A stretch of DNA of 64,000 nt, from UHGV virus genome UHGV-0131811, one strand, 5' to 3'. The translations under genes and the position numbers were made by a program. This DNA is from a virus. Below, piece after piece: positions 37,103 to 38,806 of the stretch (position 1 is the stretch's first letter; the number at the start of each line of letters is the position of its first letter). The notes below the pieces were generated by a model, which saw only the letters and a program-made list of their open reading frames with translations, made no database searches and had not been told where the DNA came from.

Positions 37103-37167
37103 GAGCAGCATAAACCAACGGGTACTCACCAACATCACTTAAGAGTCTTCTAAGAGGGTTTTTAAGT

Positions 37168-37262
37168 AATGTGATGTTTGGTTTGGTGTGGTCAGGTAAT
37201 GTGATGTCTGGTTTAGTGCGGTGATGTGCGGTCCGGTAAGGTCCGGTGCGGTAAAGTGCGGG
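37168..37262 (+). repeat. phased pentamer array A: 19 units with invariant GT every 5 nt
   Basis: Read directly: aatGT gatGT ttgGT ttgGT gtgGT cagGT ...; no open frame. Confidence 0.9.
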
Positions 37263-37302
37263 TAGTTAGTCTCAGCTACATTAAAATGAGACTTACCTTT
37301 TT
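37261..37302 (+). terminator. type-1 hairpin (AGTCTCA / GCTACATTAAAA / TGAGACT) followed by TTTTT
   Basis: 7-bp stem plus GGTA/TACC extension, then T-run; same loop with a different stem in locus 2. Confidence 0.45.
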
Positions 37303-37329
37303 AAAAGGTCTTTAAGAGGGTCTTTTAAT

Positions 37330-37399
37330 AAGGTGCTGTATGGTAAGGTGATGTCTGGTGTGGTAGGGTGAGGTTAAGTGAGGTGAGGTATGGGTGGAT
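37330..37399 (+). repeat. phased pentamer array B: 14 units NNGGT
   Basis: aagGT gctGT atgGT aagGT gatGT ctgGT gtgGT agGGT gagGT ... Confidence 0.9.
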
Positions 37400-37425
37400 G
37401 GTAGTAGCCACGTTAAAAATCTACC
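37400..37425 (+). other. type-2 hairpin (GGTAG / TAGCCACGTTAAAAAT / CTACC)
   Basis: 5-bp stem; locus-2 counterpart has GGCAG/CTGCC, a compensatory change. Confidence 0.4.
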
Positions 37426-37486
37426 AAGTTTCTAAAGAGTCTTCTGTTGAGGGTTCTTTACAAACAACTTAACAATCAACTAAAGT

Positions 37487-38089
37487 GTGGAGCTAAATGC
37501 TATGAAACTGTTAAATGTCAAAATCACTGGTACTCGTCCTTTCCTGAGCCATAACGATACACTGTCAGACCCATTAAACCCTCTGACTAAATATCACAAG
37601 TCTCTGTCCAGTAAACGTAAAAAGACTGACGAAGACTATGCGCTCTTAGCAGAAAGCCAACTGGTAACCTCTTGTTACTACGATGAGCAGCTAGGTTTTG
37701 TTATGAACGGTGAGATGATTGAGGCTTGTATCAAGTCTGGTGCAAAACTCAACAAACTTGGTAAGGTAATTGACCGAGCTATTATGCTGACAGATGTAGT
37801 CTTCCCAATGACTATCAAGAACTGTCCAGCAAACCCACAAGAACTTGCTAAGAACCCAGACTTTATCTATGCTAAGTCTGTTAAGATTGGTACAGCACGA
37901 GTTATGAGCTACCGTCCAATCTTCCGTGACTGGTCTGTAGAGTTCGGTTTGATGTTCGATGAAGAGCAAATTACCAAAGAAGAACTCTTGATGGTTCTGG
38001 AAAATGCTGGTAACCTTTGCGGTGTAGGTGATTGGCGTCCACGCTTTGGTCGTTTTTCTGTAGAAGTTATTTCAGAAGGTAACGTTTAA
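37487..38089 (+). CDS. hypothetical protein
   Basis: 200 aa from GTG 37487, or 195 aa from ATG 37502; first gene after repeat locus 1. Confidence 0.55.
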
Positions 38090-38091
38090 TT

Positions 38092-38532
38092 ATGAATACA
38101 AAAGCATTAGCAGCAAAGTTTAGTTACGGTGACACTGTATCACACTCTGAGATGGATACCTTCTTAGGTATTGTGAAGCCAACTTATCAAGGTGACATTG
38201 TTAAGTACGAAGATGAAATGAAGGCTTATGCGCTTACACGTCTAAACCGACTTGAGAAATTTATTGAGAAGCTTCTTAAAGAAGAGAAGATTTATCTGGT
38301 TGCTTCAATGGGTGTTGGTTATCGTGTGGTTGAGCCTAAACATCAAGCAACTATTGCAAAACGCAAAATGTCTGGTAAGATTGGTCGAGCTTTAAAGCAA
38401 GCCACTCAAGCAATTGAGAATGTGAACACTATGGCACTTAGCCATCAAGAACGTTCACGACTGATTGAACAGCAAAACCATTTAGCTGCTATGAAAGCTA
38501 ACATTAACAAGCAACGCAGAAAACCTTTCTAA
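38092..38532 (+). CDS. hypothetical protein
   Basis: 146 aa helical ORF followed by terminator. Confidence 0.55.
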   Translation: MNTKALAAKFSYGDTVSHSEMDTFLGIVKPTYQGDIVKYEDEMKAYALTRLNRLEKFIEKLLKEEKIYLVASMGVGYRVVEPKHQATIAKRKMSGKIGRALKQATQAIENVNTMALSHQERSRLIEQQNHLAAMKANINKQRRKPF

Positions 38533-38543
38533 GTTGACTAGGT

Positions 38544-38566
38544 AGCCTCTTCGGAGGCTCCTTTTT
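38544..38566 (+). terminator. rho-independent terminator (AGCCTC-TTCG-GAGGCT plus T-run)
   Basis: GC stem with UUCG tetraloop then TTTTT; directly precedes repeat locus 2. Confidence 0.6.
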
Positions 38567-38594
38567 AAAAGGTCTTTAAAGAGGGTCTTTTAAT

Positions 38595-38664
38595 AAGGTA
38601 AGGCACGGTTATGTCAGGTATGGTACGGTACGGTTAGGTAAGGTGAGGCGGAGTAAGGTATGGG
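38595..38664 (+). repeat. phased pentamer array C: 14 units NNGGT
   Basis: aagGT aagGC acgGT tatGT cagGT atgGT acgGT acgGT tagGT ... Confidence 0.9.
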
Positions 38665-38666
38665 TA

Positions 38667-38697
38667 GTTAATCGGAGCTACATTAAAATTCGATTAC
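38667..38697 (+). other. type-1 hairpin (TAATCG / GAGCTACATTAAAATT / CGATTA)
   Basis: Loop core GCTACATTAAAAT as in locus 1, stem sequence different but still complementary. Confidence 0.4.
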
Positions 38698-38731
38698 ATC
38701 ACTTAAGAGTCTTTTAAGAGGGTTTTTAAGT

Positions 38732-38806
38732 GAGGTGTGGCACGGTAATGTTAGGTAGGGTCAGGTCAGGTCAGGTGAGGTAAGGTAAGGTGATGTATGG
38801 AAGGAT
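38732..38806 (+). repeat. phased pentamer array D: 15 units NNGGT
   Basis: gagGT gtgGC acgGT aatGT tagGT agGGT cagGT cagGT cagGT gagGT aagGT aagGT ... Confidence 0.9.

Follow-up and report, generated by a model that had tools for sequence, protein, structure and literature searches.

A short motif that an earlier note had picked out in five copies in UHGV virus genome UHGV-0131811 makes up the apical half of an RNA hairpin that is conserved, ∼40 nucleotides (nt) long, and on the + strand, with a stem of 17 to 20 base pairs (bp) and a loop of 3 to 5 nt. The stretch of this genome that was analyzed, called the window below, is 64,000 nt (64 kb) long. The motif stands at a locus of VIPR, a phage system that silences DNA under the guidance of RNA and was first reported in 2026 (bioRxiv 10.64898/2026.04.26.720920; cryo-electron microscopy, 10.64898/2026.04.26.720927; PDB 36pp). 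The protein Vipr polymerizes on a guide RNA, the vrRNA, with one protomer per repeat; the vrRNA consists of 9 to 16 YNNGG repeats and then a 3′ tail, which forms a pseudoknot in the SUSP1 clade; and through its variable NN dinucleotides the vrRNA reads double-stranded DNA, with one nucleotide skipped, which silences the transcription of competing phages and satellites (bioRxiv 10.64898/2026.04.26.720920,.720927). The system around the motif, type II VIPR, is already known; the hairpin, which we call the leader hairpin, is a well-supported component of it that is not described in the two preprints, and it gives a modest new lead on vrRNA biogenesis.

The leader hairpin: fold, conservation, and distribution

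All five copies fold as one continuous stem on the + strand (−11.4 to −14.8 kcal/mol; z scores of −2.1 to −3.7), whereas their reverse complements fold much worse (−6.5 to −8.7 kcal/mol). The hairpins are kept when the whole 403-nt and 321-nt intergenic transcripts are folded. The two halves of the motif, AAGAGUCUU and AAGAGGGUU, are the arms of one hairpin, complementary to each other through G·U pairs; thus, what had been described as an internal direct repeat, AAGAGTCTT/AAGAGGGTT, is really a pair of hairpin arms that are partly G·U paired. The copies fall into three classes that have the apical stem GAGUCUU/AGGGUYU in common, while their lower stems differ and yet stay complementary. The lower stem is CAUCACUUAA/UUAAGUGAUG (CATCAC/GTGATG) in class H1, CCUUUUUAAAAG/CUUUUAAUAAGG (CCTTTTT/AATAAGG) in class H2, and GUUUCUAAAGA/UCUUUACAAAC (GTTTCT/ACAAAC) in class H3; in phage wV8 there is a further lower-stem pair, CCTCATT/AATGAGG.

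To describe the hairpin we gathered 128 candidate copies, 73 of them unique, from the window and 23 related loci. Trimming these to the hairpin and dropping odd variants left 40 unique aligned copies from 24 phage loci, from which a covariance model was built. Among these 40 copies the stem positions were paired in 92.8% of the cells, compared to 44 to 74% when the partners were slid against each other. Six of the pairs were changed on both sides, in 61 cells, a result that was reached by none of 500 shuffles. Three wobble pairs, G13·U28, U14·G27, and U16·G25, are nearly invariant, and the occasional changes in them give Watson-Crick pairs and never disrupt the stem. These conserved wobble pairs make the hairpin specific to the + strand, which explains why the model scored 51 to 64 bits on that strand and 11 to 20 bits on the − strand.

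In five phages an H1 copy carries a natural insertion of 22 nt in the apical loop, and in all of them the whole stem is kept (−18 to −23 kcal/mol) and a normal array follows. The insert is itself a small stem-loop (the variants are at 3255-3315 in locus L004, 3185-3245 in L129, L132, and L137, and 3191-3251 in L139). A search of the window with Rfam 15 at the gathering score gave no match, ribozyme families included, and a permissive Rfam scan of positions 36900 to 39000 gave only chance-level matches of the small nucleolar RNA type.

When the covariance model was run over the window with its speed filters off, it returned exactly five matches (30 to 64 bits), all on the + strand; the next-best match scored 14 bits (E value, 0.43). 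All five copies that the earlier note had placed were thus recovered, and its consensus, allowing up to three mismatches, matched 3 sites in the window versus 0 in 100 shuffles. That note had also proposed a genome-wide search in case the motif marks a class of temporal promoters, and a relative of the motif, CTTTTAAGAG, at 30908-31164; neither idea held up. Beyond the five copies in the window, the whole 90-kb genome of the near-identical Salmonella phage SeKF_63 gave the same five copies plus one weaker partial match (26 bits; E value, 8e-4), which is near a tRNA. The supposed relative is a 10-mer scattered five times (5010, 5396, 31003, 38711, and, on the minus strand, 45638), and 30908-31164 is an AT-rich divergent region in which the model scored only 11 bits (E value, ∼3 to 7).

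The four hairpins that precede guides abut arrays of pentamers with a strict period of 5, and the fifth copy lies 37 nt upstream of the start codon of the vipr gene at 37502, as the earlier note had seen in describing a copy before each array and one before a gene. The 3′ end of the hairpin coincides exactly with the start of the repeat tract, and the last 5 nt of its 3′ arm (UAAGG, UGAUG, or UGAGG) constitute an in-phase, base-paired "unit 0." Among close relatives, 22 of 22 carry 4 to 6 leader copies, all on the vipr strand, with about one per array and one before vipr. The hairpin was absent from Vipr loci at 37 to 40% identity and from 97 of 100 diverse array-bearing viral contigs, and one of the three exceptions (L040) is the same Felix O1-like contig as L133. 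The leader hairpin is therefore a clade-specific accessory of the SUSP1-type VIPR locus and not a genome-wide signal.

The weaker partial match in SeKF_63, at 13681-13709 in a part of the genome outside the window, is a leader-like 20-bp hairpin that contains G·U pairs (CUUUAAGGGCUUUC-UAA-GAGAGUCUUUAAAG; −20.7 kcal/mol; z score, −4.3). It stands 8 nt upstream of the tRNA-Arg gene in a tRNA cluster, and it may hint that in these phages hairpins of the leader type serve more generally in the processing of stable RNAs.

The VIPR locus and its guide RNAs

The window comes from a Felixounavirus. The 2-kb region around the motif matched 231 phage records, nearly all of Felix O1-like myoviruses (Felixounavirus, Suspvirus, and Mooglevirus), and its best nucleotide match was SeKF_63, at 98% identity. 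Public records annotate the region without giving a mechanism, as "DR_4" (wV8), as "possible binding site of StbAB" (KhF3), or with terminator and promoter features (ASO1B). Pfam and PADLOC assigned no family to the neighboring proteins, and PHROGs assigned only families of unknown function.

Vipr proteins are RAMP-like RNA-binding proteins of ∼20 kDa in which a G-loop and thumb residues contact GGY (bioRxiv 10.64898/2026.04.26.720920,.720927). For the 195-amino-acid (aa) protein encoded next to the arrays, phages and prophages contain hundreds of homologues (∼190 aa), and the profile of this family matched a single solved structure, chain D of PDB 36pp, "SUSP1 Vipr protein" (E value, 1.7e-80). 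The window protein shares 97% identity with SUSP1 Vipr and has all of H17, E71, M72, R138, C173, D177, W178, and R179, so that the RNA-contact residues (H17, R138, D177, W178, and R179) are intact; its structure model was confident (pLDDT, 94). The 146-aa open reading frame (ORF) that follows is identical at 145 of 146 residues to the gene beside vipr in SUSP1, which encodes Vap1. A Vipr gene 99% identical to the enterobacterial one is also present in GU169904.1, the record of "Staphylococcus phage SA1," which suggests that Felix O1-like sequence has been mixed into that record.

Among 18 unique tails the pseudoknot positions were paired in 90.3% of the cells, versus 26 to 43% with slid partners, and 9 of the 12 pairs were changed on both sides, which 0 of 500 shuffles reached. 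From the identity of Vipr and Vap1 and this covarying tail pseudoknot it follows that the pentamer arrays are vrRNAs and that the locus, as judged from its sequence, belongs to type II of VIPR (SUSP1 clade) and has a pair of guides on either side of vipr-vap (Table 1). Each unit consists of the leader motif, then 12 to 17 pentamers in strict period-5 register, and then a tail of ∼33 nt, and the units are placed end to end.

TABLE 1 Features of the VIPR locus, all on the + strand, and the genes that flank it, in coordinates of the window. Bits are scores of the covariance-model matches, which span the positions listed unless others are given; motif copies are numbered as in the earlier note.
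Feature	Position	Details
DNA ligase gene	35819-36919	Left flank of VIPR locus
Sigma-70-type promoter	37075-37102	TTGACA, 16 nt, TATACT (11/12); promoter scan; conserved in SUSP1
Unit 1 (leader + repeats + tail)	37131-37293	
Leader hairpin 1, class H1	37131-37178	Model core 37133-37171; 20 bp, 5-nt bulge, 4 G·U pairs; −14.1 kcal/mol, z −3.0; 51.0 bits; motif copy 1
vrRNA 1 repeat tract	37177-37261	17 YNNGG units, 5 of them degenerate (UG or AG)
vrRNA 1 3′ tail	37262-37293	H-type pseudoknot; GTAG/CTAC and AGTCTCA/TGAGACT, A-rich linker
Unit 2	37296-37426	
Leader hairpin 2, class H2	37296-37333	−11.4 kcal/mol; 60.5 bits; motif copy 2
vrRNA 2 repeat tract	37334-37393	12 YNNGG units
vrRNA 2 pseudoknot tail	37394-37426	GTGG/CCAC and TGGTAG/CTACCA
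Leader hairpin 3, class H3	37428-37465	Model match 37427-37465; in vipr 5′ untranslated region, no array 3′ of it; −13.8 kcal/mol, z −3.7; 30.0 bits; motif copy 3
vipr	37502-38089	195-aa RAMP-like guide-RNA-binding effector; PDB 36pp_D match, SUSP1 identity
vap1	38092-38532	Accessory gene, 146 aa; SUSP1 identity
Intrinsic terminator 3′ of vap	38544-38566	Terminator scan; U-tract doubles as 5′ arm of next leader
Unit 3	38560-38696	
Leader hairpin 4, class H2	38560-38598	−12.3 kcal/mol; 63.6 bits; motif copy 4
vrRNA 3 repeat tract	38599-38663	13 units
vrRNA 3 pseudoknot tail	38664-38696	GTAG/CTAC and TAATCGG/TCGATTA
Unit 4	38697-38833	
Leader hairpin 5, class H1	38697-38735	−14.8 kcal/mol, z −3.4; 59.2 bits; motif copy 5
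vrRNA 4 repeat tract	38736-38800	13 units
vrRNA 4 pseudoknot tail	38801-38833	AAGG/CCTT and TGGCAG/CTGCCA
Next sigma-70 promoter	38852-38880	
Next gene	Starts at 38925	Right flank of locus

The four arrays keep the period-5 register without insertions or deletions, and in the window this pentamer periodicity was found on the + strand only and in these four places only. With the locus identified as VIPR, the arrays need no new explanation. Other readings of them were dropped given the adjacent Vipr gene and the account in the preprints: a TRAP-like RNA bound by protein with a 5-nt period, an array of two-quartet G-quadruplexes, an anti-Shine-Dalgarno sponge, primase or Chi-like DNA sites, and Rho-resistant spacers. 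Array 1, with 17 units, is above the published range of 9 to 16 because of a 30-nt (six-unit) tandem duplication at 37166-37222, which takes in part of the 3′ arm of the leader and in which GTAATGTGATGT occurs twice. The same duplicated form of vrRNA 1 is present in phage ASO1B, and the duplication may show how arrays grow. In the SeKF_63 record, short coding sequences for "hypothetical proteins" are annotated on the opposite strand across the vrRNA arrays (45860-45964 and 46017-46106); these are almost certainly spurious gene calls on noncoding guide RNAs.

Natural targets of vrRNAs 2, 3, and 4 were sought with NNx patterns. There were 0 matches in the IMG/VR viral contigs and 0 in the GTDB species genomes; in metagenomes there were 0 matches for one pattern and one partial match for another. 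The partial match, at 499-530 of contig Ga0224511_10053086, is exact at 11 of the 13 NNx positions of vrRNA 4 and is the sole match of this kind. ORFs are nearly absent from this contig, the two 5′ units are not covered by the match, and a single match is about the chance expectation in so large a collection; most likely it is due to chance and is not a target of vrRNA 4.

Arrays of this general form are common. The pattern (GGTNN)x6GGT was found in >120 IMG/VR contigs, often as several tandem arrays, which fits the breadth reported by the VIPR authors. Such (GGTNN)n arrays are widespread in unrelated viral contigs (e.g., L014, L024, L021, L061, and L031), with constant elements between the arrays that differ from contig to contig. 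In contig L061 every array, the first among them, has a hairpin before it, and none follows the last array; the structured constant part thus seems to stand 5′ of the repeats there. In contigs L075 and L059 the gene after the arrays resembles a vipr homologue.

Upstream of the first unit, a perfect 8-bp inverted repeat (GGTGAGTA at 37091-37098 and TACTCACC at 37123-37130) brackets the −10 element and likely start of the promoter at 37075. This repeat is conserved in SUSP1, and it could be the operator for a regulator of the VIPR locus.

What the hairpin may do

Published RNA lengths bear on the fate of the hairpin. Purified SUSP1 vrRNA has 12 repeats and is ∼100 nt long or less (bioRxiv 10.64898/2026.04.26.720920,.720927), and in the SUSP1 sequence there are 12 YNNGG units between the hairpin and the pseudoknot. 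Since 60 nt of repeats and a tail of ∼35 to 40 nt fill these ∼100 nt, there is no room for a 40-nt hairpin on the mature vrRNA, and we infer from these lengths that it is removed. In Escherichia coli, vrRNA of the right size arises from a plasmid that has only vrRNA1 and vipr behind a foreign promoter (VIPR preprints); host factors, Vipr, or both are therefore enough, and no other phage factor is needed, for removal of the 5′ flank. The texts of the VIPR preprints and the supplement that were consulted describe the vrRNA as the repeat tract plus the 3′ tail and, for this type, make no mention of a 5′ leader, a precursor, processing, or an RNase.

The precursor is probably transcribed from the sigma-70 promoter at 37075, which matches at 11 of 12 positions. 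As copy 1 comes after this promoter, it is transcribed and is not the promoter of its own unit. The vap terminator (38544-38566) overlaps the leader of vrRNA 3 (38560-38598), and its U-tract, CCUUUUU, is the 5′ arm of that leader; the same CCUUUUU follows the type-A pseudoknot tail at 37296.

In the reading that we favor, with a probability of about 0.5, the hairpin serves as a signal for processing, or as a boundary, by which guides and vipr mRNA come apart from a common precursor, and the host ribonuclease III (RNase III) plausibly does the cutting. One precursor from the 37075 promoter would carry successive units of hairpin, 12 to 17 YNNGG repeats, and pseudoknot tail, with the hairpin as the constant 5′ flank of the four vrRNAs and of the vipr mRNA. 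An endonucleolytic cut at the hairpin would free the guides and the mRNA and set the 5′ end of each guide; a cut ∼12 bp below the loop would leave 5 to 8 nt of the 3′ arm on the guide. Both the cleavage and the enzyme are proposed by analogy. Phage early transcripts are classically cut apart by RNase III, which would be the simplest candidate here, since its substrates are of about the same size as the hairpin. The helices that E. coli RNase III cleaves typically run to about two turns; 34 nt is enough for a minimal hairpin substrate, and the sequence of the loop is irrelevant (PMC1540722). The leader stems of 17 to 20 bp, in hairpins of 38 to 48 nt, are of this size, and these substrate rules fit both the stems and the tolerated 22-nt insertion in the loop. 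In other VIPR types, hammerhead ribozymes occupy the same position between vrRNAs, or the arrays are staggered (bioRxiv 10.64898/2026.04.26.720920); the ribozymes are a precedent for a cutting device at this spot. Among the roles considered in the earlier note, an RNA processing site is accordingly the one that best fits a conserved, covarying, strand-specific hairpin that ends where the guide repeats begin.

Some observations weigh against this reading. The more distant VIPR clades mature their vrRNAs without a leader hairpin, and hence it is not generally required. The apical stem is more conserved in sequence than an enzyme as tolerant of sequence as RNase III would need, which may reflect a specific protein partner or just the concerted evolution of paralogous copies. 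Also, with a good intrinsic terminator just before vrRNA 3, vrRNAs 3 and 4 depend either on read-through or on a separate promoter, and to that extent the H2 copies could still act as promoters.

A protein partner is the subject of another explanation, which we consider possible but rather unlikely: the hairpin would be a specific binding site for Vipr, acting as a Cas6-like protein or stopping the filament or setting its register, or for Vap1, and would direct maturation, limit the spread of filaments between guides, or autoregulate vipr through the copy in its 5′ untranslated region. That copy has no array after it, the tandem-G·U apical stem is conserved in sequence in all three classes while the lower stem covaries, and the final 5 nt of the 3′ arm are an in-phase YNNGG unit sequestered in the stem, all of which would suit such a site. 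Certain RAMPs, such as Cas6, cleave repeat hairpins at their base. Vipr is related to the RAMPs (VIPR preprints), and Vap1 enhances defense by a mechanism that is not known (VIPR preprint). However, the preprints report no nuclease activity for Vipr and have it recognizing flipped-out, single-stranded GGY rather than helices; Vap1 is predicted to bind DNA (VIPR preprint); and the 5′ arm of class H1 has no GGY. It is more doubtful still that the 72-nt constant block of pseudoknot tail and leader hairpin is the functional counterpart of a CRISPR repeat, with the hairpin recognized, and perhaps cut at its 3′ base, by Vipr or Vap1. If true, this would be of high interest, as Cas6-like guide maturation would already have existed in the proposed viral ancestor of CRISPR. 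It is similarly improbable that the constant parts act mainly as DNA, with leader and tail serving as a homology block for the duplication, loss, and exchange of vrRNA cassettes between coinfecting phages and the RNA hairpin being incidental. The number and order of vrRNAs do vary among near-identical phages (1+2, 1+3, 2+2, 2+3, and 3+2), given tail types always precede given leader classes, and the 30-nt duplication in vrRNA 1 includes part of the leader's 3′ arm; but homology blocks need no internal complementarity, compensatory changes, or conserved G·U pairs, and this role is compatible with an RNA function as well.

A promoter was among the roles offered in the earlier note. That the motif is one, either a weak sigma-70 promoter or one for a phage-modified RNA polymerase that gives each vrRNA and vipr its own transcription start, is, in our judgment, a long shot. 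Every unit has one copy before it; terminator-like elements precede the H2 copies, in which TTAAAA and TTTAAT are 17 nt apart; and temporal control in Felix O1-like phages is not understood (PMC3185647). But the sigma-70 and terminator scan found no promoter-like site overlapping any of the five leaders, and in the −10 element every copy is missing either the A at position 2 or the T at position 6. The would-be −10 is itself variable (TTTAAT, TTTAAC, TTTAGT, and TTTAAG), the columns with the highest conservation correspond to the spacer of such a promoter, and a DNA promoter does not explain the covariation of the stem or the strand-specific G·U pairs. Moreover, 22 nt can be inserted between the arms in five phages, the motif is limited to the VIPR locus across the 90-kb SeKF_63 genome, copy 1 is already downstream of a near-consensus promoter, and Felix O1-like phages encode no RNA polymerase (PMC3185647). 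A search of the literature on transcript mapping in Felix O1-like phages found nothing usable. The Shine-Dalgarno-like look of the core, TAAGAGGGT, is coincidental. The core is purine rich and resembles GGAGG, but four copies have no downstream ORF, the GAGGGT of the fifth is ∼47 nt from an ATG that has its own GGAG at 37489-37492, and the core is base paired in the hairpin; thus, the sequence itself already refutes a ribosome-binding site, to which we give next to no weight.

How discrete guides of ∼100 nt are made from the long intergenic transcript of a type II locus is left open by the preprints, and the hairpin is a conserved, covarying element at the right place. It makes vrRNA biogenesis directly testable: if it is a processing signal, vrRNAs should begin with a 5′ monophosphate a few nucleotides within the 3′ arm and should need the stem and perhaps RNase III. 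Those who engineer VIPR guides may have to keep the native 5′ flank to obtain guides of the right length and in good yield.

Comparison with known systems

Relative to CRISPR repeats cut by Cas6, the stem in the window is long (17 to 20 bp versus 5 to 7 bp) and rich in A/U and G·U pairs rather than in G/C; the hairpin is apparently not retained on the mature RNA, going by the published lengths; and nuclease activity has not been reported for Vipr. The likeness lies in the layout, in which a constant structured element alternates with variable guides and the 5′ edge of the guide is where the hairpin stops, and in the partner protein, a relative of the RAMPs.

RNase III hairpins are found in the polycistronic transcripts of phages, and the early R1.1-type sites of T7 are an example of such processing hairpins. 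Unlike these, the leader hairpin lacks an internal loop of the R1.1 type and is more conserved in its apical sequence than RNase III needs, and cleavage would be assigned to it by analogy. Like them, it is an imperfect hairpin of ∼1.5 to 2 turns between the functional RNAs of an early transcript, and it is above the 34-nt minimum (PMC1540722).

VIPR types I and V, in which the arrays are interspersed with hammerheads, likewise have a structured RNA between consecutive vrRNAs that presumably separates them. The window locus differs in matching no Rfam ribozyme family; its hairpin is a plain stem-loop with no catalytic core, and cleavage would therefore need a protein.

The closest system is the type II VIPR of SUSP1. 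That phage has one vrRNA upstream and three downstream, compared to two and two here, and its guide (NN) content differs. The two agree in several respects: Vipr and Vap1 are 97% and 99% identical, respectively, to the window proteins, the gene order is the same (ligase, vrRNA or vrRNAs, vipr, vap, and vrRNAs), both have YNNGG arrays with the same four types of pseudoknot tail, and the leader hairpins of the window recur in the sequence of SUSP1.

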